This document shows, piece after piece, positions 3,049 to 50,995 of a stretch of DNA of 60,469 nucleotides. Origin of the DNA: Candidatus Omnitrophota bacterium (GTDB lineage: Bacteria; Omnitrophota; Gorgyraeia; 2-02-FULL-51-18; JAGOUK01); assembly GCA_047639455.1 (NCBI GenBank), contig JBLINS010000004.1, positions 1 to 60,469 of the forward strand. The letters are read 5' to 3'. How positions within the stretch are numbered: position 1 is the stretch's first letter; each line of letters starts with the position of its first letter. Below the pieces are notes generated by a model, which was not told the DNA's origin, made no database searches, and saw only the letters and a program-made list of their open reading frames with translations. The position numbers and the translations under genes were made by a program.

Positions 3049-3166
3049 TCATTCTCCTAAGTACATATTTTATATTCTAGTTATTTAGTTTTGCTAAGCA
3101 ATCCGCAGACCTAATCAAAATTCACCTCCCCTTTCGGCGTAATTTAGATCGCCATATATTCAGTTA

Positions 3167-3217
3167 TTTTAGCCTCGTCGGTGTTGCGTTGTTTTATCTC
3201 AACTCACGAGGCTAAAA
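3167..3217. promoter_or_regulatory. Stem-loop between the feo operon and the porin gene (terminator, processing site or leader structure)
   Basis: Perfect 12-bp inverted repeat ttttagcctcgt (3167-3178) / acgaggctaaaa (3206-3217). Confidence 0.4.
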
Positions 3218-3228
3218 CCTCAAGCGCG

Positions 3229-3242
3229 TTAGATAATCCTAA
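3229..3242. promoter_or_regulatory. Candidate DtxR/MntR-type operator
   Basis: TTAGATAATCCTAA fits the TTAG-N6-CTAA core of DtxR boxes. It lies upstream of the porin operon and just downstream of a DtxR-family gene. Confidence 0.35.
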
Positions 3243-3256
3243 TAAATTTTGTCTAT

Positions 3257-3454
3257 TTATTTCTGTTCTAAAGCCTGAACCAATTCTTCGCGTACTTCAC
3301 GTACTTTATTCGACTTAAAATGCCTTTTGGTATCTTCTAATTTACTTATCGCACCCATGATAATTGACTCCAAAGATTGAATGCGTTGAGCCAAATTTCC
3401 ATCCATTGACTGTTGTGATATTGGCTGATTATGCATATGACTCATCATCTCCAT
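3257..3454 (-). CDS. Small helical hypothetical protein (65 aa)
   Basis: ORF 8 bp downstream of the DtxR-family gene on the same strand; amphipathic/coiled-coil pattern. Confidence 0.6.
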   Translation of the reverse strand: MEMMSHMHNQPISQQSMDGNLAQRIQSLESIIMGAISKLEDTKRHFKSNKVREVREELVQALEQK

Positions 3455-3462
3455 TAATAAGC

Positions 3463-4140
3463 TTAATTCTTTGAAAACCTAACCTGTATCATGGACGCCA
3501 ATTCTCTATCCACAACAAATTGACTTTGGCCCATTTGAAACAAAAAACCAGGTTTGCGCTTAATCAGTTTAATAGGCAAGCCTGGCAAAACACCCATAGC
3601 CGTTAATTTATTCAATGTATCTTCCTGCTCAGTCTTTAAATAAGCAATCAGACCCGTTTCGCCTAATTCGCATTCAGTCAAATTACGGACCAATTTGCGC
3701 GGCATGCGTTTTTCATCCCGGCAACAGTCCCCTTCTGGAATAGGCTTGTCATGTGGGCACATGGTTGGATGACCTAATAAAGTGCAGATATTCTCAGCAA
3801 CTTCTGTTTGCAATAAATGCTCCATCTCACAACCCAATTCATGATTTTTATCTCCACGCACATGCAAAACATCAGCAAAGAGTTTTTCGGCCAAACGATG
3901 GCGTCTAACACAAGATCTGGCTTCAAGGCGACCATGATTCGTAATTGTTAAAACACCGTCCTTCCACACAGCCATATTTTTTTCCAATAGTTCTTTCGTA
4001 ATCGGTTCTGCATCGCCACCTGTGTAAGACCAAGCCAAACCCTTTTCTTCGGTTTCAACCCAATAATCCTCTAATATTTCATGAGCCAGATCAGATACCC
4101 CTATTTTCTCGTGATTGTGTTCAAGAGTGTTTTGCTCCAT
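3463..4140 (-). CDS. DtxR/MntR-family metal-dependent repressor with C-terminal FeoA (SH3-like) domain
   Basis: RRHRLAEKLFADVL, CEMEH, LLGHPTMCPHDKPIP dimerisation motifs; FeoA-like LTAMGVLPGLPI. RBS aagggag. Confidence 0.9.
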   Translation of the reverse strand: MEQNTLEHNHEKIGVSDLAHEILEDYWVETEEKGLAWSYTGGDAEPITKELLEKNMAVWKDGVLTITNHGRLEARSCVRRHRLAEKLFADVLHVRGDKNHELGCEMEHLLQTEVAENICTLLGHPTMCPHDKPIPEGDCCRDEKRMPRKLVRNLTECELGETGLIAYLKTEQEDTLNKLTAMGVLPGLPIKLIKRKPGFLFQMGQSQFVVDRELASMIQVRFSKN

Positions 4141-4340
4141 CTTTTGCTCCCTTCGCTAACTTTAGCAGCCAAATTCTTTAACCATACAATTTCTTGCGGA
4201 TTATCATACCCGCACTTTGGGCATTTAAGCATGCCACAACCACTTGGAGCTCCAGCACTATCGGACTGATGACAGCTATGACAACCACCTACAGCTGCCG
4301 TTGCTTCTGTGAATGACGTATTGCAATACGAGCAGTTCAA
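4101..4340 (-). CDS. Small Cys-rich protein (7 Cys) between feoB and the DtxR-family gene
   Basis: CxxC, CxxC, C, CxxC pattern; overlaps the feoB stop; no signal peptide. Confidence 0.7.
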   Translation of the reverse strand: MNCSYCNTSFTEATAAVGGCHSCHQSDSAGAPSGCGMLKCPKCGYDNPQEIVWLKNLAAKVSEGSKRWSKTLLNTITRK

Positions 4341-6379
4341 AGCTGTATACCTGTAAGGTTTAATATGCCATTAAGCACGTAACCGATAAAAAATGCGAAT
4401 GGAAAAATAAAGGCCGCCATGCCCATAGCCATGGCTCCACCGCGCTCTTTCCACATAACAGCAAATTGAGCTATGCAAGGCACGAATAGAGTCAAGACAA
4501 CCGTTGCAATCAACATGCCATTACCACTCAAAGTACCTTGATTGGCCATATCGAATAAACCGGCTGCACCAAAGTCGCGCCTAAAGAAACCATATAGGAA
4601 CACTGGCGCAACACCCTCGGGCATACCCACCCATGTCACGGGATAAGCGATGAGCTTGACTCCCATTTCAAAAAGACCTGTTAATTTACCAAACCAAATA
4701 ATGACTGATGCATACAAAAAGATTGGCACAATTTCAATAAAGTACCAAACCATGCGTGAATAAGTTTTGGTAAAAACATTCACAACACTTGGCATTCTAA
4801 GTGGGGGCAATTCCATAAAGAAAGATGTGCCCTCGCCCTTAAAGACTTGCTTTGCCATCCAACCACTTATAAGGAAGACAACGCCCATGGTAAGGGCCCA
4901 CAAAACAAGCATTTTGGGACTATTACCCAATATACCAAGAATAACACCCAATTGAGCTGAGCAAGGAATGGTTAAAGACAAAAGAAAAGTCGCAATAATT
5001 CTTTCCTTTTTAGACTCTAATGTACGCGTTGTGATGGTAGCCATCGTATCGCAACCGAATCCAAGCGTTATTGGAATAACAGCTCTTCCACTCAAACCTA
5101 TGGACTTAAACATCTTATCCACTAACATGGCCAAACGTGGCAAATAACCTGAATCCTCAATCATCGAAAAGGCTATAAAGAACGTAGATACAATTGGCAA
5201 AACAATCGCAAAGGCATATCGCACACCCAAAGTTATAATGCCGTAATCACCTGCGAATAAATCATAAAACATATTATCGCCAAACAAAAAGGCGAAAAAA
5301 GATTGAACGGGAGGGTTGATATACTGACCAAAAATAACCCCTTCAATAAAATTAACGCAAGTGCCAGCGCCAAATTCACCCACAAATTTGAATAAACCAA
5401 AATAAAGCACAGCTAGTAATATCGGCACGCCAAAAATTGGATGGATTAATAAATGGCTCAAATGCTCTTTCCAGGCCGGTTCTTTATTGGCCTCTTGTAC
5501 AAATTTGAGATGTTCAGCGATTAATTTGCGTGTGACCTTAAGGCGGTCTTGAATAAAAATTTGGGCAGATTGTCTAAAGGACAAGTCGCCCATAATCTCT
5601 TTAATTTTGTCGGACCCTATGCGCTTTTCTACTTTCTCTATCACTTCTGAATCACCTTGAGCAATTAATGCGGCAACTGTTCGATTCGAAACCTCATAAT
5701 CACCATCTAAAAATTCACAAATATTAGCTATGCGGTTTTCAATTTCGGGTGAATAATTTGTTTTGAACATATTGAATTTATAACGTTTGTCAGCCACCTC
5801 AACAATACGCGCTTTAAGGTTTTGCATACCTCGGCCGCGTGTAGCTACAGTTTCAATGACAGGTATGCCCAAATCATGTTCCAAGTGCGCCACATCTAAT
5901 TGCATACCGCGAGATTCTAATTCATCATATAAATTCAATACTAGAATAACGGGATGCCCCGTCTCTATAAGCTGTAATGTAAGCGGCAACATGCGCTCGA
6001 GATTCTTAGCATCCACAACATGTAATATGCAGGCGGGTATTTGTTCTAATAAATAATTACGGGCAACACTCTCTTCGCCTGTTATGGGTCGCATAGAATA
6101 CATACCAGGTGTATCAATAACTGAGAATTCATGATGACCGCCAATGCGCAATTTGCCAGAAGCTATTCCGACAGTTGTGCCTGGGTAATTACTAACAGTC
6201 ACATAACTATTTGTGAGCGCATTAAAGATGGAGCTCTTACCAACATTGGGATTTCCGACAAGAAATATTTTGCCCGTTTTTGAAGCACATTCATCATTGT
6301 GATCGTGGTTATTCTTAACTGTTTTAGCGGTGTTTACTTCAAGGTCTTCATTTTGCGCATTGGAAACGGGTTGGCTCAT
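4337..6379 (-). CDS. feoB: Ferrous iron transporter FeoB
   Basis: G1 GNPNVGKS, switch VSNYPGTTV, G3 DTPG, gate motifs LGFGC and LFVPCIA, multi-TM C-terminus. Confidence 0.97.
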   Translation of the reverse strand: MSQPVSNAQNEDLEVNTAKTVKNNHDHNDECASKTGKIFLVGNPNVGKSSIFNALTNSYVTVSNYPGTTVGIASGKLRIGGHHEFSVIDTPGMYSMRPITGEESVARNYLLEQIPACILHVVDAKNLERMLPLTLQLIETGHPVILVLNLYDELESRGMQLDVAHLEHDLGIPVIETVATRGRGMQNLKARIVEVADKRYKFNMFKTNYSPEIENRIANICEFLDGDYEVSNRTVAALIAQGDSEVIEKVEKRIGSDKIKEIMGDLSFRQSAQIFIQDRLKVTRKLIAEHLKFVQEANKEPAWKEHLSHLLIHPIFGVPILLAVLYFGLFKFVGEFGAGTCVNFIEGVIFGQYINPPVQSFFAFLFGDNMFYDLFAGDYGIITLGVRYAFAIVLPIVSTFFIAFSMIEDSGYLPRLAMLVDKMFKSIGLSGRAVIPITLGFGCDTMATITTRTLESKKERIIATFLLSLTIPCSAQLGVILGILGNSPKMLVLWALTMGVVFLISGWMAKQVFKGEGTSFFMELPPLRMPSVVNVFTKTYSRMVWYFIEIVPIFLYASVIIWFGKLTGLFEMGVKLIAYPVTWVGMPEGVAPVFLYGFFRRDFGAAGLFDMANQGTLSGNGMLIATVVLTLFVPCIAQFAVMWKERGGAMAMGMAAFIFPFAFFIGYVLNGILNLTGIQL

Positions 6380-6403
6380 ATTTTGTCTTTTCTCAATTAG
6401 GCT

Positions 6404-6856
6404 TTAATGACTATGTGGCGATTGATTGCATTTTTGACAAATGCCATAAACAAATAAACGGTGTTGGTTAACGGTGAATCCTTCTGCCTGTGTACTTTTT
6501 TCATAATAACGTGCGAGCTCTTTACCAGCAAATTCAGTGATTCGACCGCATAAATCGCATATCATATGATCATGTTCTTTATGACCATAATGATGCTCAT
6601 AACGCATAGCTTTTTGACCAACATTAAAACCTTCGCCAATGCCTGAATCGCATATAAGTTTCATGGCTCTATGCACAGTTGCATTACTAACCTCAGGGTA
6701 AGATTCCTTAACCTTTATGGCTAATTCATCGACAGTCATATGCCCCTCTTGTGTAAGGAAGACTTCTAGGACTTGATCGCGCTGCTTACTAAAGCGGATT
6801 TGATTCCTTTGTAGGTATTCTTCAAATTCTTTTTTTGGTTCTGCTAATTGACTCAT
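6404..6856 (-). CDS. fur: Fur-family transcriptional regulator
   Basis: HMTVDEL, ATVHR, HDHMICDLCG and CQKC motifs; directly upstream of feoB. Confidence 0.9.
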   Translation of the reverse strand: MSQLAEPKKEFEEYLQRNQIRFSKQRDQVLEVFLTQEGHMTVDELAIKVKESYPEVSNATVHRAMKLICDSGIGEGFNVGQKAMRYEHHYGHKEHDHMICDLCGRITEFAGKELARYYEKSTQAEGFTVNQHRLFVYGICQKCNQSPHSH

Positions 6857-6884
6857 CGGACCCTTTTGATTCGGTATAAATACT

Positions 6885-6903
6885 ACTGCAAGTGAGTTGC
6901 AGT
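6885..6903. promoter_or_regulatory. 19-bp palindrome upstream of fur-feoB, candidate Fur-family operator
   Basis: ACTGCAA-gtgag-TTGCAGT (7-5-7), 29 bp upstream of the fur start codon. Confidence 0.5.
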
Positions 6904-7051
6904 TAAGTTAAGTGCTTATTTTACACGAACTCAAATAGCTGTCAACTTAATTCTGCAGAATTATATCAAAAAAATCACACGCATGCACGCGCCAACATAA
7001 TCAACAATTTCTACAATTTATTAATTCACACTATAGCGAGGAAGAACCATT

Positions 7052-7211
7052 GTCATTGCCGGCAGGCAGGCGGGCGGAACGCGGCAATCTAGAGCTAATA
7101 ATGGCCAGTTTTGCTATATCGGATGAGGCTCAAATATTACTGTTTTGGATTGCGCCCGCGCCTGTTCGTGGCACGCCCTCCTTATTCGTCGGACACTCAC
7201 TCTCCCAATGA
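7052..7211. repeat. REP-like inverted pair (gtcattgc...gcaatct / ggattgc...caatgac family)
   Basis: Same terminal words as the copies at 9640, 22820, 32817, 33002 and 44855. Confidence 0.65.
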
Positions 7212-7252
7212 CGTGTGGGCTTTCCATGTATGTGCGCGCGTCTAAAGGGGAC

Positions 7253-9271
7253 TTACTTAAGTGCGGGGCAATATTTGGCGAGGATTTTATTTAACTCGTA
7301 GGTATTAATAGGCTTGGCCAAAAAGCCATTCATACCAGCCTCTTTGCTTTCTAGCTTATCTTCTGTCCGTGCGGCGGCTGTGAGAGCCACTATTGGCAAA
7401 TCAGGATTAATATCATTATGAATAATTTGAGCAGCCTCTAATCCGCCCATAATCGGCATTTGCAAATCCATAAGAATAAGGTGATAAGAATTTTTACGCG
7501 CCTGATCAACGCCTTCTTGGCCATTTGAAACAATGTCTACATTTGAACAAACTTTGTCTAATAATGCTCTAATCAATTCTTGATTAATGAAATTATCTTC
7601 AACCACAAGTATGCGCATGTCTTGAAAAACATCCTGACTCAATCCCGGACTTTTACCGTCATTCGATTCTTCAGTTTCAGCGCCATCCAATTGAGTCTTA
7701 ATAATTTGCGACATCGATCTTTCTAAACTCGGTTTAGGCATATAGGCATCAAAACCAGCTTCCAATGCATCGCGCATACCATCTTTTGTTGATTGAGCCG
7801 ATATAGCCATGAATAGAATAGAATTATATTTGGAAACTTTACGAATTTCTTGAATTAATTGGAGTCCGTCCATATTAGGCATAATAATATCTATCATCAT
7901 TAAATCAGGCAAAGCTTTAGTTTGCGCCAACCAAGCCAAAGCTTTTTCACCTGAATCAGCGGTGCCTTGTAATTCAATATTCATTTTTTCACAACGTTTA
8001 GAAAATAATACCAAGGCCTCAGGATTATCATCTACTATAAAGACTTTTTTGCCCTTAAAGCTTTCTACATCTATGGCTTTCATTTCTTGATCTGACTCCG
8101 ATGTGGCGCCAGCTAAATTAACTGTTACAATGAATCGACTGCCTTCATTCAGTTCTGATTCAACATGTATAGTTCCACCCATCATTTCAGTCAAAGACTG
8201 TGTTATAGCTAGACCTAAACCCGTGCCGCCATATTTGCGTGTCGTAGATTCATCCACTTGTACAAAATTGTCAAAAATATGACTGAGCTTTTCTTTAGGT
8301 ATGCCAATGCCTGAATCTTTAACCATCATGACCAAAGGATATATACCCTCTTCTGATTTAATATCCTTTTGCGCTTCTACGATTAAGGCCACCTCACCCT
8401 GCTCTGTGAATTTAACTGCATTAGATAGCAAGTTTAATGTCACTTGTCTAATAGCCGTTGGATCACCATGGATGCGCTCCGGCAAATCCTTGGAATATTT
8501 GAATTTCAAATGGACATCGCTACCCGATTTAATACGCGCTGAAGCGATATTAAGTGACTCCTCCAATAGGCTCTTCAAGTCAAAATCAATAAATTCCAGC
8601 TTTCTCTGATTGGCTTCAATTTTGGATATGTCCAAAATATCTTCGATGATTTCTAATAAACCCAAACCACTCGACTTTATAGTCTTTTGGTATTTATGCT
8701 GCTCTTTATTTAATTCTGTGTCTTGCATGAGTTCAGAAAAACCAATAATGGCATTCAATGGCGTGCGAATCTCATGTGACATATTCGCTAAAAATTGACT
8801 TTTGGCTTTATTGGATTGATCAGCATCAGCCTTAGCTTTGGTCAAATCATCAATCGTTTTCCTCAACTCACCTTCCCTCAATTTAATTTCTTCCTCTAAA
8901 TGATCTTGATACGAGCGTAATAAGTCACCCTGAGAAAGTATGCCGACAATTTGACCTTTGTCTGAAACTGGCATATGCCGAATCTTTTCCTTTTGCATCA
9001 ACTCAAGAACGTCTACCCAAGAAACTTCGGGGTCCACTGTTTTAAGGTCCCTAGTCATCACTTCTCCAATAAGCGTATTGCCAATATCATCAGCACTCCA
9101 ATTGATTTTGCGCGCACAATCCCTCTCGGTGAATATACCAGCGATGTCGCCGTTCTCTTCTATTAAAAGAGAGCTAATTTTTTTAGCTTTCATTAAGCCT
9201 ACAGCCTCTATCAAAGGCATATCACTTTTAATCACCTCTATGGGTGACATTAAATCAGAAATTGTCTGCAT
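7253..9271 (-). CDS. Soluble hybrid histidine kinase: CBS pair, HisKA, HATPase, two REC domains
   Basis: CBS motifs ([22 protein letters not shown]), H-box [16 protein letters not shown]1/G2 boxes, two receivers (DIIMP, DLQMP). No TM segment. Confidence 0.92.
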
Positions 9272-11439: not shown

Positions 11440-11835
11440 TTAATAGCCCAAGACCATCAGATGGCCCACAATCAACATGGCCACCATAATCCAAAAAATG
11501 ATGATTTGCGAATGTAATAAGCGGACATATTTACGTATATCCCGATTCATATCTACTTTAGAGCGCATCAAGAAACCAGCCAAAGTTAACCAAGCCATAA
11601 TGACCATGGATGTATATAACATCCAATTGCTCTGGAACTCAAGTAGCATATGGAATATCCCAAAAATAAAGCCAATAATATTACATTTAATATGCGCTTT
11701 TAACAAATCGCCCATGCTTTGTCTCAAGGCCTTATTGTCTGGCATGAGCTTATTAGCGACATATTTAATAGGTGTATAGGTATTGGCTACTAAAAGAAAA
11801 AATAAAGCCAAATTACCAAAAAGGGCAGACATCAT
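11440..11835 (-). CDS. mad2: 4-TM membrane protein with conserved His, Mad2-like
   Basis: G.LALFFL..N.Y.P start, His in TM2/3 (AHIKC, IFHM, LHSQ, VGH), 131 aa, inside the MGC. Resemblance to Mad2 is recalled, not searched. Confidence 0.5.
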   Translation of the reverse strand: MMSALFGNLALFFLLVANTYTPIKYVANKLMPDNKALRQSMGDLLKAHIKCNIIGFIFGIFHMLLEFQSNWMLYTSMVIMAWLTLAGFLMRSKVDMNRDIRKYVRLLHSQIIIFWIMVAMLIVGHLMVLGY

Positions 11836-12728
11836 ACTTGCACCATCCGTTTCTTCCGCTTGCGTTTAATGGGCGCAGTATTTGCGATTTCACTGGCTTC
11901 TAAACCAAGTGCTAATTTATCTTGAATAAACCTTTTTCTATAAAGCATATAGGCATAAGTGGCCATTTCTTTGGTGAATAAATAATTGAATCCGCCGCTA
12001 ATAACAATCCCAACAATGGGGATGCCGCTTGACAACTTACGCCGAGCATACCATTGTATGATTTTGGTAATCGCCAATTCAGAAATTTCTTTAGCTGCCA
12101 TACCACGAAGTTCTGAGCCAATTAAATTGCGCTTAACCATGGACGAAATCGCCGCATTAATGTCGTCAATTGCCAATTGGCGATCTTTTTCACGTTCTGA
12201 AGCAACTAAACAAAATATTTTATAAGCAAAATCTCGTTCGCTCTTCAAGTCTGGGTCATAACCATAGCAGGCTCCGATTTGTAAGACCATTTTCATATTG
12301 TGCATGAATATCAAAGGGATGTCCAAAAGAGCTAATGCAAATCCGGCGGTCGCAAAACCAGCACCTTGCAAAGTGGTCACAATTTGATTACGGCTAAAGT
12401 AACTCTGTGCTAATTCATCTAAATAAGGGGTGGGTAATTCTTTCATTTCCAATAGGCTATCGACTTCAATGCCCGAGTCCGATGTTTTATCTAATAAAGC
12501 ATCAATATTCACAAAATTTGTTGACGTATCCTGTAATGATTTAAGTGTTTTTTTCATCGGACCAATGGCTTTACTAAGTAATTTTTGGGGTAATATTCTA
12601 TCTATAGCGGAATCTATGGGTGAGAAAAAAAAGCCAACTATCATAGCGGCTTTGCCAGTCCTAAAACGCTGATCTTCCCAGCGTTCAATTTCGACCAAAA
12701 TACGATCGTCTTCAGGATTCCACTTCAC
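11832..12728 (-). CDS. EcsC-family protein
   Basis: LDIPLIF..NMKMVLQIGACYGYD and GIPIVGIVISGGFNY motifs typical of EcsC; 4-bp overlaps with both neighbours. Confidence 0.75.
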   Translation of the reverse strand: MKWNPEDDRILVEIERWEDQRFRTGKAAMIVGFFFSPIDSAIDRILPQKLLSKAIGPMKKTLKSLQDTSTNFVNIDALLDKTSDSGIEVDSLLEMKELPTPYLDELAQSYFSRNQIVTTLQGAGFATAGFALALLDIPLIFMHNMKMVLQIGACYGYDPDLKSERDFAYKIFCLVASEREKDRQLAIDDINAAISSMVKRNLIGSELRGMAAKEISELAITKIIQWYARRKLSSGIPIVGIVISGGFNYLFTKEMATYAYMLYRKRFIQDKLALGLEASEIANTAPIKRKRKKRMVQV

Positions 12729-13690
12729 GCTATCGGTTCCAAATACACATCCACATGGGCTATTGCCTTAACACGTTTCTTCAAAAGTGCGGTGATTTTG
12801 GTCGATACCTCTTCTATTTGAGCCAAACTATGCCCATTATTAAAATCAATTGTGACACCCACCCATAATTTGGTACCCATACGAATGATGCGAATACCTT
12901 CAGTTTTATGATTGACACAAATTTCGCTGACTGTTTGATTGATTTTATTCGTCAATTCCGTGTCCGGCGCCACATCTAATAATACTTTCAAATTGGAATA
13001 CCAATGATGTCCTCCATCAACAACAATCATCAAGCCCACGATTAGTGCTGCCAAATGATCAGCTGCCGCAAATCCAGGTCCCAACTGGGAAAGAAGAATG
13101 CCCAAGGTCACAGCCGTTGACGACCACAAATCAGCCTTGGCCTGCAAGCCATTAGCCATCAAGCCCACACTGTCTAATTTTTGACCTGCGCAAACATTGT
13201 ATCTAAAAATCATATAAGTCATAAAAACCGAAATAATGACAAATGGCAAACCGATTAAATCAGGCGTGACTAATTTGCCTTCTAATAGATAAATGCCGCT
13301 TTCAATAGCAATAAAAAGTCCTAAAGCCATTAATATGCTAAATACACCTAGGGCAACCAAATACTCGACTTTGCCATAACCATAAGGGAATTTGGAATTA
13401 GGTGCTTTTTGAGCTAATTTGAGGCTTATCCATATCATCACACTCGCCAAAACACAGGATAGAGATTGCATTCCATCAGCCATCAAGCCTTTAGAACCCG
13501 ACCAATAACCGCCAAACATCTTCAAAACTGTCAAAAAGATATTCGCAATAATTGTCCAAAAAACGATTTGTGCGGCGCAATCCTGGCAAGTCTTCTTTGA
13601 CCAAGGCAGCCCTTTAAAATTCTTAGAACTAGGTGAGTCTAGGGCTTCATTATCAGCAGCCGTTCGTGGAGGTTTAGTTTGTGTGCTCAA
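12725..13690 (-). CDS. Second CDF transporter, divergent MamB-like paralog
   Basis: N-terminal CxxC (CQDC), SKGLMADG, FPYGYGKVEY, CAG..LDS.GL.AN, cytosolic CTD. The TM2 metal site reads QSLSC instead of HSxxD. Confidence 0.8.
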   Translation of the reverse strand: MSTQTKPPRTAADNEALDSPSSKNFKGLPWSKKTCQDCAAQIVFWTIIANIFLTVLKMFGGYWSGSKGLMADGMQSLSCVLASVMIWISLKLAQKAPNSKFPYGYGKVEYLVALGVFSILMALGLFIAIESGIYLLEGKLVTPDLIGLPFVIISVFMTYMIFRYNVCAGQKLDSVGLMANGLQAKADLWSSTAVTLGILLSQLGPGFAAADHLAALIVGLMIVVDGGHHWYSNLKVLLDVAPDTELTNKINQTVSEICVNHKTEGIRIIRMGTKLWVGVTIDFNNGHSLAQIEEVSTKITALLKKRVKAIAHVDVYLEPIA

Positions 13691-14547
13691 TGTCGGCTGA
13701 ATCCTATATTAGTTACATGTTCATGTGGCAAAGTATCTGTGAACTTTTGATTCACGTTTTGTAATATGTTTTTTAAATCAGACACGGAACTATTCTTAGG
13801 CATGCTCACTTGAGCAACCACTTCTAATGTGACGCCCACGCGCCGTACCTTCAATGTTTTTAATTTGAGTCTTTTATCAGCCTCACGGATATGATCTGAA
13901 ATTTGGCCCAATAAATGACTATTGGTTGATCCGTCCATCAAACCCTTACAGGAATCCCATAAGAAATAAACACTATACCCAAGCAAAGCAAATGTCACTA
14001 ATATGGCCACAATATAGTCGATAATCAAGAACCCATCCCAAGAAAGAACAATGGATATGGTCGTCATACAAGAAACAATGAAATCGACTTGTAATAAAAA
14101 TAAAATGTGTTCAATATCGGCACTAATGGCCCCAAATATCTTATTCTTCCATTGGCGTAATACATATACATCGGCCACGGCAATAAAGGCGGCAATCGTT
14201 GCACCCAATAAACCATCCGGATATAGGGTATGCCAAAAAGTCACATGAATAACAAAGTACAATAAAAAACCCGTCAAAACGGCAATGAGTATCGATGAGG
14301 CCGCGACAATGATGAATTCCAACTTTTCCAAATTCAAATCAAATTTGAACCACCTCGAATTCGGCTTTTTGATTTCATCACTCATGAATATACGCAATAA
14401 ACATATCATTGTGATGAATATGCCAAATAAAGCGAATGATCCCGAAATTAAAAGCGATTTTGAATTAGACAATAAACCAAAACTTGTCTTTATCAACAAG
14501 GAGGCCGCAAAAAATAACAATAAGGAGAGTATGGTCTGTTTATTCAT
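13687..14547 (-). CDS. Second CDF transporter, degenerate MamM-like paralog
   Basis: EKLEFII..S.I..VLTGFLL resembles MamM TM3; CKGLMDG and a CDF C-terminal domain. TM2 Asp absent. Probable start ATG 14547 (MNKQ). Confidence 0.7.
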   Translation of the reverse strand: MNKQTILSLLLFFAASLLIKTSFGLLSNSKSLLISGSFALFGIFITMICLLRIFMSDEIKKPNSRWFKFDLNLEKLEFIIVAASSILIAVLTGFLLYFVIHVTFWHTLYPDGLLGATIAAFIAVADVYVLRQWKNKIFGAISADIEHILFLLQVDFIVSCMTTISIVLSWDGFLIIDYIVAILVTFALLGYSVYFLWDSCKGLMDGSTNSHLLGQISDHIREADKRLKLKTLKVRRVGVTLEVVAQVSMPKNSSVSDLKNILQNVNQKFTDTLPHEHVTNIGFSRH

Positions 14548-14549
14548 AT

Positions 14550-15011
14550 TTATCCAATACGCATCATTTCTGGACCACACCGTGGGCAAAATTGTCTTTG
14601 ATTAGCCGGGCCCCTGGTTTGCCAAGAGCAAACCTGGCATTGAAAGGTGCCTTGATTATTTTGGCCCCTAGACTGCATCGGCATACCCTGCGTAGGCCAA
14701 GACTGCTGCAATTGCATATTTCCTTGCATATTATTTTGCATAGGCATTTGTTGGAATTGCATATTATTTTGCATACGACGACGCTGATTAACCATGGCCA
14801 CATTCTGCATACCCGGCGATGTCGTCATAGTAGGTAATCCTGCAGGGGGTGCCGGCATGGGTAGTAATACCGTTGTCAATACTGCCACGGCCGCACACGT
14901 ACCTATGCCTAATACCCAGATCTTGGCTATGCCTGTTTTGGTGCATTGACTAGGGCAGGCGCCACAACCGGTTGGCCCGCATGATTTATGATCTTTGGGA
15001 TCTGTCTTCAT
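14550..15011 (-). CDS. Membrane-anchored protein: N-terminal Cys cluster, 1 TM, M/Q/N-rich linker, C-terminal Cys4 ribbon
   Basis: CGPTGCGACPSQC before the TM; CQVC...CPRC at the C-terminus. Confidence 0.7.
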   Translation of the reverse strand: MKTDPKDHKSCGPTGCGACPSQCTKTGIAKIWVLGIGTCAAVAVLTTVLLPMPAPPAGLPTMTTSPGMQNVAMVNQRRRMQNNMQFQQMPMQNNMQGNMQLQQSWPTQGMPMQSRGQNNQGTFQCQVCSWQTRGPANQRQFCPRCGPEMMRIG

Positions 15012-15013
15012 AA

Positions 15014-15970
15014 TTATCTAATCCTTTGCATATTAGCGCCACATTGTTGACATTGCGGCGTTTGACCCATTGGGCCCATGGCTTTATTCGAGCATTGTGG
15101 GCATTGGAATTGAGCCTGCATTTGAATATTATTTGGATTGGCAAAAGCCATGGGAGCAGGTGCTAGCTTCCTTCTAACCGGGGGCGTGATCGGGCGAACA
15201 TTATTTAATTCTCCCTCACCAACCTTAATTTGAACCGTTTGAATATCACCTTGTCGCATTATCACCATGGGGTATGTGCGCTCATTGCGGACCATACGAA
15301 CCATGCTTTGTAACCCTTGCGGACCTTGTGTCACGCGTTTTTTATTAAAACGCAGTATGATATCATTACGTTTAAGTCCAGCTTTGGCACCCTTAGAATT
15401 TCCCATAACACCACTCACCACTGCTTGCCCGGAACCCAACGACTTAACTTCAATGCCAAATTCGCGTATCAATAAAGGTCGCGAACCTTGTTGTCCAGAT
15501 CTTCTAGTTAAAGATTGTTGCGGCGCGAGATTAGGATTGGCCATCATCATGGATTGTGGATTAGGTTGCATTGGCGACATCATATTGGGCATGGCATTGG
15601 TATTTTGTTGCATCAAGCGTTGCTGCGCTTGCAGGTTTTGTAAAAGCATTTGTTGCTGTTGCGCAGGATTCGTTTGCATGGGTTGATTAGACATCATATT
15701 GGGCTGCATGGGCATATTCATGGCCACGGGATTCGCATTTTGTATGGGCTGATGCAAATTACGTGACTGCATATATTGCAAAGTCCCGGATTGAATATGT
15801 GTAGGTATGCCACCCGCTCTATTTTGTTGCATCTTAACTGACGGGTTCATGCCGGCAAACGGATCACCACTCACTCTAGCGCGAGCCGAGCCAATGGCCA
15901 TACCAATCACCAAAACCAAAACCGTAACACCTATGCCACCAGCAATCATCAATATACGTTTGTCACCCAT
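15014..15970 (-). CDS. Membrane-anchored PDZ protein with M/Q/N-rich linker and C-terminal Cys4 ribbon (MamE-Cter-like)
   Basis: N-terminal TM; PDZ EFGIEV...AKAGLKRNDIILRFN; CPQC...CQQCG. Confidence 0.75.
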   Translation of the reverse strand: MGDKRILMIAGGIGVTVLVLVIGMAIGSARARVSGDPFAGMNPSVKMQQNRAGGIPTHIQSGTLQYMQSRNLHQPIQNANPVAMNMPMQPNMMSNQPMQTNPAQQQQMLLQNLQAQQRLMQQNTNAMPNMMSPMQPNPQSMMMANPNLAPQQSLTRRSGQQGSRPLLIREFGIEVKSLGSGQAVVSGVMGNSKGAKAGLKRNDIILRFNKKRVTQGPQGLQSMVRMVRNERTYPMVIMRQGDIQTVQIKVGEGELNNVRPITPPVRRKLAPAPMAFANPNNIQMQAQFQCPQCSNKAMGPMGQTPQCQQCGANMQRIR

Positions 15971-15989
15971 AATAATATCCTATTAAACC

Positions 15990-16157
15990 TTAAGCTGATC
16001 GACCAAGTAAATAATAAAGCACAAGTCCTAGGACTGGCAAGAATATAATCAATAATATCCAAAGAACTTTTTTTACTGTGTCATGGTTACCCTTAACAAT
16101 GTCAAATATAGCTAATATATTTAATACAAAAACCACAAATCCAAGAATAACACCCAT
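15990..16157 (-). CDS. 55-aa PLDc_N-like membrane hairpin protein (missed by ORF track)
   Basis: Manual translation MGVILGFVVFVLNILAIFDIVKGNHDTVKKVLWILLIIFLPVLGLVLYYLLGRSA; RBS aaggag; K.LW...I..LP.LG..LY...GR is the PLDc_N (PF13396) signature. Confidence 0.85.
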   Translation of the reverse strand: MGVILGFVVFVLNILAIFDIVKGNHDTVKKVLWILLIIFLPVLGLVLYYLLGRSA

Positions 16158-17147: not shown

Positions 17148-18983
17148 TTAAGACACTATCGGCAGAGAGCACAAAAATATAATATAAATAGTTGAAATAA
17201 AGAGCATAACGCCAGCAACGGGGGCACCAATGCGTGAATAAGCTCCAAAAGTTAATAAGTATTTTTTAGTCGCCTTAAGCCCATAAATGGGGTCTTCCTC
17301 AGTTATTGTTTGAGTCACAATTCCTGCTGTAGCACCTGTCAAAGTCGCTGATGACCCGACAAGTATACCCAGTGCCAAAGCCCACCAAACTATATCACTT
17401 GAAGATGCGAATGGGGATTGCATTACAACGGGTATGAAGAAAACGGATGCAGGACCGGCGTTTAAGAAGGCGGTGACTAAAGCCACACCCCAAAGCAAAT
17501 AAACGGTGTACAAATATCGATTAGCCCCTGCCACGCCATCCAATAAACCAGATACCTTTTCAAGCAAACCTGAATGCAAGGCGCCACCTACCAATATAAA
17601 TAAGGCGATAAAAAATATAATGTCTATGAAGCTGATTTGTTTAATGACATCGGCTATATCTTTGCGATTCAAAGCTAATAAAAGAAAACCGCCACCCAAA
17701 GTGATGGTTGCCGCTCCTAGTCCAAATGCTGGTAAAAAAATGAGGCATAAAATAACTATGCTTAATATAAAGAGCACTTGGTGAACAGCCGGCCAATCCA
17801 TATTAAGATCATCAATATCTTTAGATAATTTATTTAAAAATGCTCTATTGAGTTCTGGAGATTTAATGCGGGGTAACTTAGAAAATTCTGTCCATCTCAA
17901 ATACCAAAATAAAGAGGCTAAGAGAATGGCACATATAGGCATCATGAAAATAAGGAAGTCCATGAATTGCAAGCCTGTATTCGTCGATATCACAATATTC
18001 GGAAAGTCCCCGATCATGGTCGAGGCACCGCCTATATTAGAGGCAATGATTTCGGCGACTAAAACCGGTACAGGTGGTAATTTCATTTCATGACAAAGCC
18101 CTAAGGTGATGGGAATAATGACTAATATCGTCGTTAGATTATTCATGAGCATCGAAAGTACGTATGTTAATAAACACAAGCCGATAATGGCATGCATACT
18201 CTGCCCCTTAACCAATATCACTAGCGACTTGGCCGCATAATCAAAGAATTTGAGCCGTCCCAGAATAATAGAAAATATACTCATACCAATCAAGATTAAA
18301 ATCGGGCTCATTTGAATAGCCGCAAAGGCCTTGCTTTGATTATAAAAGCCAATCAAGGAACCGCATGCCAGCATTAATACAGCGCCCATAACCACACAAA
18401 TTAAACGATTGAATACATTCAGGAATAAACACGTGAATGTCAGCGCGAATATTCCAATCACTACCATGGAACTAACTACCGTGGGGCGGAACAAGCCATC
18501 AATGGTTGAGGGATAAGGAATAGTTGTGCGCATTCGATGCATTTCTCCCCCGCGAAATATGGAGAATTGCACTTTCTCCCCCGGCTTGCTTTGTGACATC
18601 AAGTGACCGAGGTGATGAGCTGATTGAATTTGTATGGCATTATATTTTTTGATAATATCGCCACGCTTAAGCCTCACTAAACGACGGGCTGATCCAGTTG
18701 GTATTTCATTCACCAATACACCCGTATGGTCAGCTAAACCAAATTGCTTGGCTATAACCCAATCGACATCCACCACATTCAATTCTAAGACTTGCGCAAA
18801 TCCCGTGGTGCGCACATGGGCGCTATGCCCTGCCCGACTCAAATGCTGACCAGCCAATAAAGCCACAATAATTAGCGTAAGTAAAAAAGCAACACCCGCT
18901 AAGCTATAAATGGGCTCATCAGCGATGAACTCCTTTAAAGTGCGTTGTTTGCGTTTTAGTTGACTGGGTTTTTTGACGGCCAT
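17148..18983 (-). CDS. mamN: PDZ domain fused to an SLC13/ArsB-NhaD permease, MamN-like
   Basis: TM, then PDZ (RLKRGDIIKKYN...IFRGG), then a permease with NNLTTIL, ASNIGGASTMIGDFPNIV, TAFLNAGP. Confidence 0.65.
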   Translation of the reverse strand: MAVKKPSQLKRKQRTLKEFIADEPIYSLAGVAFLLTLIIVALLAGQHLSRAGHSAHVRTTGFAQVLELNVVDVDWVIAKQFGLADHTGVLVNEIPTGSARRLVRLKRGDIIKKYNAIQIQSAHHLGHLMSQSKPGEKVQFSIFRGGEMHRMRTTIPYPSTIDGLFRPTVVSSMVVIGIFALTFTCLFLNVFNRLICVVMGAVLMLACGSLIGFYNQSKAFAAIQMSPILILIGMSIFSIILGRLKFFDYAAKSLVILVKGQSMHAIIGLCLLTYVLSMLMNNLTTILVIIPITLGLCHEMKLPPVPVLVAEIIASNIGGASTMIGDFPNIVISTNTGLQFMDFLIFMMPICAILLASLFWYLRWTEFSKLPRIKSPELNRAFLNKLSKDIDDLNMDWPAVHQVLFILSIVILCLIFLPAFGLGAATITLGGGFLLLALNRKDIADVIKQISFIDIIFFIALFILVGGALHSGLLEKVSGLLDGVAGANRYLYTVYLLWGVALVTAFLNAGPASVFFIPVVMQSPFASSSDIVWWALALGILVGSSATLTGATAGIVTQTITEEDPIYGLKATKKYLLTFGAYSRIGAPVAGVMLFISTIYIIFLCSLPIVS

Positions 18984-20656: not shown

Positions 20657-21568
20657 TTATTTTTTGGCGAATAAACGCCTTTGTTTCTTTATAGCTATTG
20701 TTTCTGTACAAGTAAAAGCAATGGATACATCTTTAATTTGGTCAAAACGTCGCATCAAAGCCAATCGGATCTCTCTAATAACGGCAGACGCTTCTCTAAC
20801 GGACATCTTTAAATCCATAGCAATTTCTATGTCCAGCCAAACACTTTGGCCTATACGCCTCGCTTTAATGAAATTAATTTTCTTAACTCCGCGATAAGGC
20901 TTAATCGCATTTTCTAAAAGAACTAATTTATCCATGGGTAAGGACTTATCAATCAACTGCACCCATGAAGACTTAATCAAAAATATAGCCGTCTTCATAA
21001 TATAAAAAGCTACAAAAACTGCGGCAGCCGGATCCATCCAATAAAAACCCAAATTAGCGCCAATAATACCAATCATCACCGCTATGCTCGAATTCATATC
21101 GGCACGATTTTCTTCTGCATTCGCTACTAATGCCGGTGAATTTAATCTTGTTCCAGCGCAAAATGCATAACCGGACATCGTATAATTCAAAACAATTGAT
21201 ATCACCGTAGCAAAAAATGCCATCATCATTGGTGGCTCGGTAACACCCTCTTTCATCATCTTAATCGCGTCAACCAAAAGCACGCAGGACAAAAGAAAAA
21301 GAATCGTGTAAACAACCAAGGCGCCCGTGAATTCGACTTTGCCCCTGCCCCAAGGATGTTTGTCGTCATCCTTTTTATTAGCAATGAATAAAGTCACAAT
21401 AACCGTTACCGTACCAATAACATCCGTCATTGAATGTATTCCGTCAGCTATCAAACCTTTAGAGCCGGCGAATACACCCATCAGCACAGTGAACACTGCC
21501 AAAAAACTATTTCCAAAAAAACTTACCCATGGCACGCGTTTGCCACAATCAATGCATTTCTGTCTCAC
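20657..21568 (-). CDS. mamB: Magnetosome CDF transporter MamB
   Basis: CIDC, ADGIHSMTD, HPWGRGKVEF, CAG..LNSPALVANAEENRAD. Confidence 0.88.
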   Translation of the reverse strand: MRQKCIDCGKRVPWVSFFGNSFLAVFTVLMGVFAGSKGLIADGIHSMTDVIGTVTVIVTLFIANKKDDDKHPWGRGKVEFTGALVVYTILFLLSCVLLVDAIKMMKEGVTEPPMMMAFFATVISIVLNYTMSGYAFCAGTRLNSPALVANAEENRADMNSSIAVMIGIIGANLGFYWMDPAAAVFVAFYIMKTAIFLIKSSWVQLIDKSLPMDKLVLLENAIKPYRGVKKINFIKARRIGQSVWLDIEIAMDLKMSVREASAVIREIRLALMRRFDQIKDVSIAFTCTETIAIKKQRRLFAKK

Positions 21569-21589: not shown

Positions 21590-22477
21590 TCAGGCAATAG
21601 ACATTGGTGTCGGCTTAATCTGCACCAATATACTACCCATGTATCGATCGCGTTTGCGTAAGTCTGCTTTAATATTTTGTACAATGTTTTTTGACTCCAA
21701 AACAGATAAATCAGGATTAATTTCTACGGTTAAGTCGAGTATCATTTTTGAACCAGAGGATCTCGCCAAAACTTGTGTGACATTATCAACTTCATCAATT
21801 TGTAGCACACTCTTCTTAACTTCTTCAATATAACCTTTGGGCGCACTTGCATCCATCATGCCCTTCAAACCTTCCGTCAGGATCGCATAACTACCATGAA
21901 TGATATGTATGGACTCAAATATCGCAATCACTGGATCCGCCCAATGAATCCCTATTCGGGTAGCTAGAACTCCAACAGCAACTAATAAAGAGCCATAAAC
22001 ATCAATCTTATTATGCTCGGCATGTGACCTTAATGTGGGGCTATTCAATTGTCTAGCTCCACAATTCGAAAACTTGTAAACCAAAGCACTAATCACAGAA
22101 GATATAATCGAAACAAAAAATACCAACATATGCGGAATAACCATAACTTGTTTATTCATATGAATGAACGAAGACGCAATCAAAGCAATCGTTCCGGCTA
22201 TCATGGCACCACTGATGCCCACTTGAGCTATGAATTCAATTTTGCCAAATCCATAAGGGTATCCCCTAGTCGCCGGTCTATGGGTATATTTCATTCCCAA
22301 AAAAACCACCATCGAAGAACCAATATCACTCACATTCGACATGCCACTCGCCACCAAAGCATGACTGCGACCCATAAAACCAAAGGTCAATTTAAAAATG
22401 GATAAGAATACCGCTGCTATAAATCCGAGCGAACTCGTGATTTTGGCGCATTTGCGACAAAGCTTTTCATCTTTCAT
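21590..22477 (-). CDS. mamM: Magnetosome CDF transporter MamM
   Basis: CRKC, SNVSD, YPYGFGKIEF, SPTLRSHAEHNKID, ADPVIAIFES. Confidence 0.88.
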   Translation of the reverse strand: MKDEKLCRKCAKITSSLGFIAAVFLSIFKLTFGFMGRSHALVASGMSNVSDIGSSMVVFLGMKYTHRPATRGYPYGFGKIEFIAQVGISGAMIAGTIALIASSFIHMNKQVMVIPHMLVFFVSIISSVISALVYKFSNCGARQLNSPTLRSHAEHNKIDVYGSLLVAVGVLATRIGIHWADPVIAIFESIHIIHGSYAILTEGLKGMMDASAPKGYIEEVKKSVLQIDEVDNVTQVLARSSGSKMILDLTVEINPDLSVLESKNIVQNIKADLRKRDRYMGSILVQIKPTPMSIA

Positions 22478-49942: not shown

Positions 49943-50960
49943 TAGGGGTCAAGTCTTTGGTTTTAGTATAGATTGCGCTAATTTCTCCCAAATTTCAACG
50001 TCACCCTTCATCATGTAAAAGGCGCTGCCAATGGTGTTGTAGCTTAGTCCGCCAAGTAAAGATCCAATATGCTTGTATGTTAGCTGACATTCGTTCCTGA
50101 GCATGTATATGGCCAATTTTCTAGGTATATTCCTTTTAGAAGAACATCTGCCCGTGATATGTGTTGCTGCAACATTGTAATGGGCGGCTATCAACGAAAT
50201 GATACTCTCAGGACTAGGAAGATCTTTTATTTCGTTTAGCTGTGGAATTTCTCTCTGATGTTTTACTTGTTTCTTATAGAAAGTAGATTTAATTTTTTCC
50301 ATAAATGCCTTTGTCCCCATAACCGACGGCCATTTACTTGATTTCATAACCTTGAGTAGCGTTTCGTCTTCATCCTCGTTTACAAATTTATCCAACTCTT
50401 TTTTAGCAGCAGACTCATACTTTGAGAACATGGACAGCACTGTTGATGTCGTCAGCCATTTGGGCTTCTTATTCAAAATCATATAGCATCTATGACTTCC
50501 ATGCATGTCTTCTATGGCGCAGTTAAACTTACGTGCCCTAACAGCATTCAAATGAATATATCTAACGAGTGTCGTCAGATAGCTATCTTTATCGATGAGA
50601 ATCGATTTATATCTGCCTTTGAATAAGGCCCCGTCCCTATTATGGCGTCGATTATACCGTTGAGTATAGATTCCATCGATATGTCGCATGGCTCGTGATA
50701 AGTTTCCTAGAGGGGTTTCTATGATAATGTGGTAATGATTACTCATTAAATTGAATGCATGCACTCTTATCTTCCACAAGTTTACACTTTCTTCCAATAA
50801 TTTTAGAAAAGCATTGTAGTCGCTTTCGCCATTAAAGATAATGCGACGATTTAATCCGCGGTTCATGATGTGATAAAAAGCATTGGGATATTGAATTCTT
50901 AGCGGTCTGGACATGTGGCTATGATACCATATTTTATGATAACCAAAGACTTGACCCCTA
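49943..50960. mobile_element. RAYT-type element bounded by perfect 20-bp terminal inverted repeats
   Basis: taggggtcaagtctttggtt (49943-49962) and aaccaaagacttgaccccta (50941-50960). Confidence 0.85.
49949..50914 (-). CDS. REP-associated tyrosine (Y1 HUH) transposase with C-terminal DnaA-like HTH
   Basis: MSRPLRI...YHIMNRG, HUH motif NHYH, FKGRYKS, catalytic Tyr in VRYIHLN; C-terminal PRKLAIYMLR..CQLTYKHIG. Real start probably ATG 50914. Confidence 0.9.
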   Translation of the reverse strand: MSRPLRIQYPNAFYHIMNRGLNRRIIFNGESDYNAFLKLLEESVNLWKIRVHAFNLMSNHYHIIIETPLGNLSRAMRHIDGIYTQRYNRRHNRDGALFKGRYKSILIDKDSYLTTLVRYIHLNAVRARKFNCAIEDMHGSHRCYMILNKKPKWLTTSTVLSMFSKYESAAKKELDKFVNEDEDETLLKVMKSSKWPSVMGTKAFMEKIKSTFYKKQVKHQREIPQLNEIKDLPSPESIISLIAAHYNVAATHITGRCSSKRNIPRKLAIYMLRNECQLTYKHIGSLLGGLSYNTIGSAFYMMKGDVEIWEKLAQSILKPKT

Positions 50961-50995
50961 AGTCTAAGTTTGAGTTGAGAAATTGATAGTTGCAT

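Follow-up and report, generated by a model that had tools for sequence, protein, structure and literature searches.

What becomes of a MamM/MamB pair in which both proteins have lost the universal metal-ligand aspartate of transmembrane helix 2 (TM2)? MamB and MamM are core iron-handling and membrane-forming magnetosome proteins, and all mechanistic work on them that we know of rests on the canonical Asp/His site of two Alphaproteobacteria. The question is raised by a 60,469-nucleotide stretch of a Candidatus Omnitrophota genome (contig JBLINS010000004.1, positions 1 to 60,469 of the forward strand; this whole stretch is hereafter the window), in which a second pair of cation diffusion facilitator (CDF) genes, here called M2 and B2, lies in the same operon as a canonical MamM/MamB pair. 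By sequence and predicted fold, M2 and B2 are members of the CDF superfamily, yet they are without its defining site-A feature. On balance, we favour the view that they form an asymmetric CDF heterodimer, in which M2 would be a dead auxiliary subunit and B2 would carry a remodelled, thiolate-containing site. The features of the pair on which the analysis turns are the following.

13687..14547, minus strand: M2, a MamM-derived CDF of 286 amino acids (aa), site residues F38, G42 / L151, D155
14422..14436, minus strand: M2 TM2 motif FALFG, with G42 (14422-14424) at the Asp position; Gly in all of the M2 family
14230..14247, minus strand: M2 His pair H101/H106, specific to the family and 97% conserved; predicted to lie at the lumenal end of TM3
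14083..14097, minus strand: M2 TM5 residues L151 and D155, placed by alignment
13687..13690, minus strand: start/stop overlap TTGA of M2 and B2, read directly from the sequence; translational coupling
12725..13690, minus strand: B2, a MamB-derived CDF of 321 aa, site residues Q75, C79 / Q183, D187; N-terminal CxxC
13577..13588, minus strand: B2 N-terminal C35-x-x-C38, common to MamB
13454..13468, minus strand: B2 TM2 motif QSLSC, with the C79 codon (13454-13456) in place of the universal metal-ligand Asp
13130..13144, minus strand: B2 TM5 site residues, Q183 at 13142-13144 and D187 at 13130-13132

A preliminary description of this DNA had placed the TM2 motifs HSMTD and SNVSD in the canonical pair and QSLSC and FALFG in the second pair, and all four were borne out on the minus strand (21422-21436, 22325-22339, 13454-13468 and 14422-14436, respectively). 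The end coordinate that it gave for the second MamM-like gene, 14547, is also the true ATG: the mechanically called open reading frame (ORF) spans 13687-14589, from a TTG at 14589, and we took the ATG at 14547 as the start of M2 because the homologue P0024 begins at the same position and the stop codon of the upstream gene lies 2 nucleotides (nt) before it. The region 12600-14700 was assembled with 0 differences in two independent 'ice metagenome' runs, and partly in a third; these identical independent assemblies rule out an assembly artefact. In public annotation, the two proteins appear as 'cation transporter' and 'hypothetical protein'.

To place the site residues, both proteins were aligned with HMMER to Shewanella oneidensis YiiP, whose site A we take to be numbered D47/D51 on TM2 and H155/D159 on TM5, that is, D-D/H-D. 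In B2, Q75/C79 fall on D47/D51 ('ADGMQSLSC' aligned to 'SLTDSFAD') and Q183/D187 on H155/D159 ('ANGLQAKAD' aligned to 'EADSLHYKSD'); in M2, L151/D155 fall on H155/D159, and F38/G42 occupy the TM2 ligand positions in every multiple alignment (MAFFT and NCBIfam). The four positions therefore read Q-C/Q-D in B2 and F-G/L-D in M2, compared with H-D/E-D in the MamB and S-D/H-D in the MamM of the window. Neither B2 nor M2 has the combination of (H/D/N/E)-D on TM2 and (H/D)-D on TM5 that characterizes site A across the superfamily. The preliminary description had held that TM5 keeps only the Asp, which is right for both proteins, and that the TM2 Asp is gone from both, which also stands; all four positions in B2 nevertheless stay ligand-capable. 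Among the cluster representatives of 103 other diverse CDFs (drawn from matches to the M2 profile, hence enriched for odd CDFs), 76 have the TM2 Asp, and Cys and Gly were each found in 0 of the 103, so that chance does not account for the altered TM2 residues of B2 and M2.

Membership of the superfamily itself is supported by several measures. Both proteins pass the cut-off of 26.6 bits for Pfam Cation_efflux (PF01545), B2 with 127.2 bits and M2 with 34.4 bits (E 2.5e-8); for TIGR01297 (cut-off 82.35), B2 passes with 173 bits and M2, at 51.8 bits, falls below. AlphaFold2 models of B2 (mean per-residue confidence, pLDDT, 84.1; predicted TM-score, pTM, 0.73) and M2 (pLDDT 83.7, pTM 0.69) each contain six transmembrane helices and an alpha-beta-beta-alpha-beta C-terminal domain (CTD), with the four site positions within TM2 and TM5. 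Foldseek searches of the PDB returned only CDF transporters (YiiP and ZnT) for both proteins, with a TM-score of 0.84 and a root-mean-square deviation of 3.2 Å for B2 against YiiP (5vrf_A), and TM-scores of 0.55-0.68 for M2 against YiiP and ZnT structures.

The two families have departed from the canonical site in different ways. The B2 family site is Q/E - C - Q/H/N - D, with all four positions limited to coordinating side chains, and the Cys does not vary among the true family members seen (17 aligned sequences together with the related loci L118 and L119; related loci are given L numbers throughout), the one exception being the early-branching copy of L043, which has Val. Of 16 loci, half encode it with TGT and half with TGC (8 each). 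Omnitrophota-type B2 proteins (L004-L006, L038, L040-L042 and L118) carry the TM5 sequence 'AN(G/A)CHAGAD', with an extra Cys directly before the TM5 His. The M2 family site is (F/M/L/V/I/Y/A/P) - G - (L/I/M/V/A/F) - mostly D, in which the Gly never varies, the remaining three positions being hydrophobic or variable.

Conservation elsewhere in the proteins follows the same division. Relative to the MamB clade, B2 keeps nearly every MamB-conserved residue, including the CxxC, the Cys of 'YNVCAG' (C167, equivalent to MamB C138), the FPYGxGK loop, the TM5 Asp, K107 and D239; C35, C38 and C167 are each 94% conserved in the B2 family and 100% in the MamB clade. The change from Asp to C79 is the only position that is 100% conserved in both the B2 and MamB families and yet different between them. 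Where MamB has a CTD Asp with 78% conservation, B2 has Gly278. M2, compared with the MamM clade, has lost the TM2 Y/H/D, the HPYGxG loop, C135, the NSP motif and H148/H151/H152 of TM5, and is also without the TM6 residues E184 and H187 and the CTD residues R235, W242, D244 and Glu of that clade; in place of the CTD Asp, whose conservation in the MamM clade is 85%, M2 has Val244, and in place of the Trp it has Glu. Kept in M2 are K75, E77, S85, G172, D177, A181, the GLMD hinge and D205. The Lys/Asp pairs kept in both B2 and M2 align with what we take to be the residues of the charge interlock of the YiiP dimer. When conservation was summarized by segment, MamB and MamM showed a relative peak on TM2, loop 2-3 and TM5 (ratios of 1.11-1.19) and B2 was alike, whereas in M2 the peak had shifted to TM3 (1.17), TM6 (1.10) and the hinge (1.34), with loop 2-3 down to 0.71. 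TM3 and TM6 are the dimer-interface helices in YiiP.

Judged from the sequences, M2 and B2 are under purifying selection rather than in decay. Between the window and L003, the rate of nonsynonymous change (dN) is 0.19 for both M2 and B2 (synonymous change, dS, is saturated, so dN is given alone and no ratio), compared with 0.16, 0.15 and 0.27 for the neighbouring MamK, TauE and EcsC. Pseudogene decay is ruled out by this low dN and by the conserved family-specific residues. It is accordingly hardly credible that the pair are decaying, functionless relics of a duplication: the canonical ligands are indeed lost and M2 is barely recognizable by its Pfam E value, but the ORFs are intact, the proteins are conserved across phyla, dN is low while dS is saturated, the AlphaFold2 folds are confident and family-specific residues persist, so that this explanation is effectively refuted.

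A harder question is whether either protein still transports. The preliminary description had proposed a pair of pseudo-transporters, specialized for membrane remodelling or regulation, with a different metal as the alternative for the Cys variant. For M2 the proposal fits well, its site-A positions being hydrophobic or Gly and its HPYGxG loop, TM5 histidines and CTD Asp having gone. For B2 it is probably wrong, given an invariant Cys encoded by either TGT or TGC, four ligand-capable positions, and TM2, TM5 and loop 2-3 constrained as in a working MamB; a different metal is the better reading of the Cys variant in view of this conservation. A pair in which neither protein transports is nonetheless a possibility that deserves some weight, though we think it rather doubtful. 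Both proteins might be kept for the transport-independent job of MamB (invagination, recruitment or a PDZ scaffold), or for regulating or stabilizing the canonical MamB/MamM, although nothing observed points specifically to membrane remodelling. The TM2 Asp is gone from both proteins, B2 has lost a conserved CTD Asp as well, the pair always follows PDZ proteins, and binding of MamB to a MamE PDZ domain has been reported. B2 also keeps the MamB CxxC and the C138-equivalent Cys; in MamB, mutation of the conserved cysteines abolishes function, with MamM unaffected, and C138 is needed for oligomerization (PMC3905215). Yet a purely structural role leaves unexplained why a Cys should be invariant at the exact ligand position, why the other three positions should be limited to Q/E, Q/H/N and D, and why TM2, TM5 and loop 2-3 should be as constrained as in working transporters; one subfamily, moreover, adds a second Cys next to the TM5 His. 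Because all four positions are ligand-capable and this second Cys stands beside the TM5 His in one subfamily, the B2 site, as far as its residues tell, does not have the pattern expected of a dead site under relaxed selection.

The ancestry of both proteins points to the magnetosome CDFs. The top NCBIfam model is CDF_MamB for B2 (174.3 bits) and CDF_MamM for M2 (76.7 bits, with MamB at 62.2), whereas a FieF model (NF050169) reaches 86.7 bits with B2 and 32.6 with M2, the FieF equivalog cut-offs being 420 and 447. Neither protein reaches the equivalog cut-off of 350 bits for MamB (NF033616) and MamM (NF033615), but the canonical MamB (227 bits) and MamM (204 bits) of the window are also below it; because that MamB scores only 227 bits, we regard the MamB cut-off as tuned to Pseudomonadota. 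In profile-profile comparisons (hhalign), the B2 family scored 504 against deep-branching H-D-E-D MamB, 376 against MamM and 367 against CDFs from outside magnetotactic bacteria (MTB), and the M2 family scored 246 against MamM, 202 against MamB and 193 against non-MTB CDFs. A neighbour-joining (NJ) tree, which is distance-based only (Kimura distances, 100 bootstraps, 117 representatives), nested both families among the Mam CDFs, with B2 monophyletic in 86% and M2 in 99% of bootstraps; M2 grouped with intermediates (Y-N-H-D, Y-E-H-D, F-N-L-D and L-D-L-D) in 85%, and B2 was sister to the canonical MamB of L043 in 73%. An origin from FieF-like proteins is ruled out by the NCBIfam scores, the NJ tree and hhalign, all of which set the families apart from non-MTB CDFs, and the same three lines agree with the preliminary description that the pair is a duplicate of the MamM/MamB lineage and not of ordinary FieF. 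Comparison of the DNA of the two window pairs found no similarity beyond conserved motifs; this motif-level residual similarity rules out a recent DNA duplication.

From these sequence relationships, we read the pair as the probable outcome of an old tandem mamM-mamB duplication inside a deep-branching magnetosome gene cluster (MGC), after which the M copy lost its site step by step and the B copy exchanged Asp for Cys. M2 and B2 belong, by inferred ancestry, to the MamB/MamM lineage, yet should not be filed as MamB or MamM, because both the equivalog scores and the ligand residues fail. We hold these statements on conservation and ancestry with high confidence.

M2 and B2 belong to rare families. 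The B2 relatives found (37-72% identity) come from metagenome contigs, four Omnitrophota metagenome-assembled genomes (MAGs; three by genome scan plus L118) and one Fibrobacterota MAG, and across different phyla both families are at roughly 35-48% identity, with intact ORFs in every locus. Relatives of M2 were found chiefly by exhaustive profile search: a word-indexed search returned only 2, and a profile rerun through the word index returned 8, whereas an exhaustive HMMER search with an M2 profile over 1.84 billion cluster representatives returned 27 clusters at E ≤ 1e-30, beyond which there is a steep drop in score, from 130 bits to 90 or so and less. In all 13 of the loci that have upstream DNA (the window, L001-L006, L039, L041, L042, L043, L118 and L119), the gene next upstream of B2 is M2, and ORF coordinates give the same 4-nt overlap in 10 of the 13 homologous pairs. 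In L120, the two are joined: P0033 is a 601-aa ORF (3110-4915) in which M2 and B2 are in frame, separated by a 24-residue linker with no internal start or stop. The topology would allow such a fusion, since M2 ends and B2 begins on the cytoplasmic side. L120 is an 11-kb contig on which the neighbours of the fusion are acetyltransferase, methyltransferase and radical-SAM genes; because there are no magnetosome genes among them, the M2-B2 module may also occur outside MGCs.

Where the canonical pair is present, M2-B2 adds to it and does not replace it. L043 carries the second pair beside a canonical MamM and MamB, and L118, from Omnitrophota, has a canonical H-D-E-D MamB followed by a gene in the MamA position, MamQ, MamN/PDZ, TauE and then M2-B2. 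In the Fibrobacterota locus L119, the pair occupies a small island, and no canonical pair lies closer than 10 kb. Two genes after M2-B2 in L004 (5140-6297) is a further CDF, a CxxC-bearing protein of 385 aa with the site H-D-Q-N, of which the MamB model matches the N-terminal half only and the C-terminal part weakly resembles MrpORP.

Obligate adjacency, translational coupling, the one fusion ORF and the kept interlock and hinge residues lend indirect support to a pairing of M2 with B2. The two might instead form separate homodimers, or cross-pairs of B2 with MamM and M2 with MamB, their adjacency being merely the ancestral mamM-mamB order; the canonical genes do stand in that order, and the Lys/Asp interlock and hinge residues, required in CDF dimers of every kind, persist in both M2 and B2. 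We consider this improbable, since it sits poorly with adjacency in 13 of 13 loci and a conserved 4-nt overlap (the canonical pair is 21 nt apart), with the existence of a natural fusion and with the L119 island, and since a homodimer of dead M2 would have no obvious function.

The asymmetric heterodimer that we favour would work as follows. M2 and B2 would be kept as an accessory module in the MGCs of Omnitrophota-like and related deep-branching magnetotactic bacteria, where the translationally coupled genes would yield the two proteins in a fixed ratio, and these would assemble into an asymmetric CDF dimer in the magnetosome or cytoplasmic membrane. M2 would be the non-transporting auxiliary protomer, binding no metal in its membrane domain or CTD; for folding and dimerizing it would retain the six-helix fold together with the scaffold helices TM3 and TM6, the GLMD hinge and the Lys/Asp interlock. 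The operative role would fall to B2, in which the MamB framework is kept and the site is rebuilt around the invariant Cys (Q/E, Cys, Q/H, Asp); this should give a softer ligand field, suited to Fe(II) or another thiophilic divalent cation, and alter proton coupling relative to canonical MamB/MamM. In an MGC, Fe(II) would be the obvious candidate metal, with another thiophilic cation possible. The sequence features, conservation, selection, ancestry, synteny, presence beside a canonical pair and single gene fusion are observed; heterodimerization, transport by B2 and the identity of the metal are the parts of this model that we infer, and the transport competence of B2 is conjecture.

Several observations weigh against the heterodimer model. 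Adjacency and shared phylogeny would be equally expected for two independent homodimers, and the fusion is known from a single contig of one sample, with no magnetosome genes nearby. In the window B2, Cys and Asp are the only strong ligands, both other positions being Gln, and we know of no experimentally characterized CDF with Cys at site A. Because the conserved CTD Asp is lost (G278), B2 might not be metal-regulated, or might not be active. The deeper groupings of the NJ tree are weak (31-37%), and the M2/B2 sequence was seen in DNA runs only.

A bolder version of the heterodimer model can be entertained, tentatively and with more doubt than belief: B2 might be the first natural CDF with a cysteine thiolate in its membrane site, in an obligate heterodimer with a dead M2 whose lumenal His pair faces the crystal compartment, together forming a second, chemically distinct metal route into magnetosomes. 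Were this so, deep-branching magnetotactic bacteria could use the second route for Fe(II) when conditions are sulphidic or reducing, or else for a thiophilic metal or a dopant, with an influence on the mineral type or the bullet-shaped crystal habit.

The genomic setting of the pair is a magnetosome gene cluster, as judged from ORFs and family annotation, and it is transcribed from the minus strand. From upstream to downstream, the order is an HTH (helix-turn-helix) regulator, MamE, two Nitro_FeMo-Co proteins, MamP, MamM, MamB, MamA, MamQ, a MamN-like CitMHS protein with a PDZ domain, TauE, a 55-aa membrane ORF, a PDZ protein, a 153-aa protein, M2, B2, an EcsC-family gene, two small genes, MamK, Fur, FeoB and DtxR/FeoA. 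M2 and B2 are thus flanked by MamK, MamQ, MamA, MamN-like, MamO-Cter/TauE, MamP and MamE genes; MamE combines trypsin and PDZ domains, MamP combines PDZ and magnetochrome domains, TauE is of the MamO C-terminal type, and MamK exceeds its NCBIfam subfamily cut-off (425 versus 400 bits). The proteins of the cluster are closest to those of L003 and L002, followed by the Omnitrophota loci (TauE 60-62% identical, MamB 48%), which makes an Omnitrophota-like source probable. The genes nearest to the argument are as follows.

21590..22477, minus strand: canonical MamM; site S47, D51 / H, D
20657..21568, minus strand: canonical MamB, 303 aa; site H45, D49 / E, D; CxxC present
15014..15970, minus strand: PDZ protein gene, upstream in the operon; CxxC...CxxC tail
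14550..15011, minus strand: 153-aa protein gene, upstream in the operon; CxxC...CxxC tail
11832..12728, minus strand: EcsC-family gene, with a 4-nt overlap with the B2 end; kept downstream of the pair in L001-L003

M2, B2 and their neighbours appear to form one tightly packed operon, because the genes overlap and no promoter-like or terminator-like site stands out between the packed genes in a scan of the region around M2/B2; an Rfam scan of the M2/B2 region found nothing relevant. The canonical MamM and MamB genes lie 21 nt apart. A PDZ protein gene precedes M2-B2 in all related loci. The PDZ protein (15014-15970) and its smaller neighbour (14550-15011), which has no family match, are both rich in Q, M, N and P and end in CxxC-x(10-12)-CxxC, giving them a zinc-ribbon look.

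This setting bears on one further explanation, that there is a second magnetosome gene set, specific to a mineral such as greigite, and that the pair is its CDF part. Clusters of the Fe3O4 and Fe3S4 types co-exist in some Omnitrophota and other genomes (PMC7602337), Omnitrophica Mam proteins fell with the greigite group in one analysis (PMC7449369) and a thiolate ligand is suggestive in a sulphide context. In the window, however, the CDF pair alone is duplicated, whereas MamA, MamQ, MamK, MamE, MamP and the MamN-like gene are single-copy, and the pair sits within the same operon as these genes. B2 also groups with the H-D-E-D MamB of the magnetite-type, deep-branching clade, apart from the CDFs of Planctomycetota clusters, which are putatively of the greigite type, in a comparison that included no proven greigite-cluster sequence. 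We regard a separate mineral-specific set as very improbable.

Other features of the cluster are recorded for comparison. A two-helix membrane ORF of 55 aa (15990-16157, minus strand) lies between TauE and the PDZ gene, and L002, L003 and L118 have small ORFs annotated as PLDc_N at its position. The MamN-like CitMHS transporter (17148-18983, minus strand) has an N-terminal PDZ domain and scores 303 bits against NCBIfam MamN, under the cut-off of 500; the same PDZ plus MamN-like CitMHS architecture occurs in the Omnitrophota loci L005 and L118. Two large proteins with a dinitrogenase FeMo-cofactor-binding-type domain are encoded at 24631-26292 and 26311-28083 (minus strand), one adding a magnetochrome domain and the other having weak, sub-threshold zinc-ribbon-type matches; in L001, L118 and L119, smaller Nitro_FeMo-Co genes belong to a conserved block of NFMC, 1-2 small ORFs, Fer4_5, PDZ, MCR, M2 and B2. 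Directly downstream of MamK is an iron-uptake and regulation block (3463-9271, minus strand) made up of a hybrid histidine kinase that has a CBS domain and two matches to receiver domains, followed by Fur, FeoB and a DtxR-FeoA fusion, these last three being syntenic in L002 and L003. Farther away (49949-50995, minus strand), a 348-aa ORF between a TPR protein and a sensor-kinase region joins an IS200-like Y1 transposase domain to a DnaA C-terminal HTH.

How does the pair compare with known systems? MamB and MamM of Magnetospirillum share its superfamily, lineage, M-then-B order and MGC location, and B2 shares the CxxC and the C138-like Cys; MamM and MamB interact, and MamM stabilizes MamB (PMC3905215). 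The TM2 Asp, in contrast, is 100% conserved in both Mam clades of our set and is Cys in B2 and Gly in M2. The transport ligand D50 of MamB (strain MSR-1), an Asp in 100% of the H-D-E-D MamB clade, corresponds to C79 in B2, and the MamM site residues Y46, D50, H155 and D159 (MSR-1) correspond to F38, G42, L151 and D155 in M2, which differs further by its lost TM5 histidines, HPYGxG loop and CTD ligands; at 174 and 77 bits against 350, both proteins stand well away from the equivalog models. Within the window, the canonical genes are separated and M2/B2 overlap, the latter being present in addition. The window MamM itself has Ser where most MamM have Tyr (Y46 in MSR-1), and in a related set of metagenome loci (L045, L047, L049, L050, L052 and L054) the MamM has Cys at that position (C-D-H-D).

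The eukaryotic ZnT5-ZnT6 heterodimer (Msc2-Zrg17 in yeast) offers a functional parallel for M2: in ZnT6, two site residues have given way to hydrophobic ones, and ZnT6 serves as the auxiliary protomer (PMC7949119). M2 shows substitutions of the same type (F, G, L) at three of its four site positions, family-wide. Those systems serve zinc in the secretory pathway of eukaryotes and are related to M2/B2 through the superfamily only; there the partner carries the site, whereas the B2 partner is ligand-capable but non-canonical (Cys for Asp), and the M2-B2 dimer is itself putative. YiiP/FieF has the same fold as B2 and M2 (TM-scores of 0.84 and 0.55-0.65, respectively), and the pair aligned with its Lys/Asp interlock is conserved in both, but it is a homodimer with a D-D/H-D site rather than the Q-C/Q-D of B2 or the F-G/L-D of M2, for which the FieF models give 87 and 33 bits, respectively.

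Planctomycetota-type MGCs (L008, L009, L011-L013 and L019, the named Planctomycetota genomes being L008-L013 and L019, plus about 40 metagenome loci, such as L069 336-2123) have a canonical Y-D-H-D MamM followed directly by a CxxC-bearing, MamB-like CDF with the site Q/E-N-V/I-D, which has neither the TM2 Asp nor the TM5 His; some of these loci add an H-D-D-D MamB. By its residues and placement, this CDF makes up a second lineage of MamB paralogues with a degenerate site, independent of B2: it carries Asn and Val/Ile instead of Cys, is partnered by a canonical MamM, forms a separate NJ clade and scores 320 against B2 in hhalign, compared with 504 for canonical MamB.

In the literature that we searched (extra copies of mamB and mamM, Omnitrophota MGCs and mae6), we found no published description of the M2-B2 pair. 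The nearest item is mae6 of Elusimicrobiota MGCs, an extra cation-efflux gene that clusters with neither MamB nor MamM (bioRxiv 10.1101/2022.07.08.499144); the likeness is by description alone, as the paper is silent on site residues and pairing. We expect M2/B2 to surprise specialists moderately. A conserved, selected pair that breaks the site in two ways would be a natural separation-of-function experiment for CDFs, setting scaffold against transport, and the candidate thiolate site of B2 would widen the known rules of CDF metal selectivity. The pair may represent a bacterial counterpart of the eukaryotic ZnT5-ZnT6 arrangement of operative and auxiliary subunits, and, where MamB and MamM serve as phylogenetic markers of magnetosome evolution, M2 and B2 should be scored separately.

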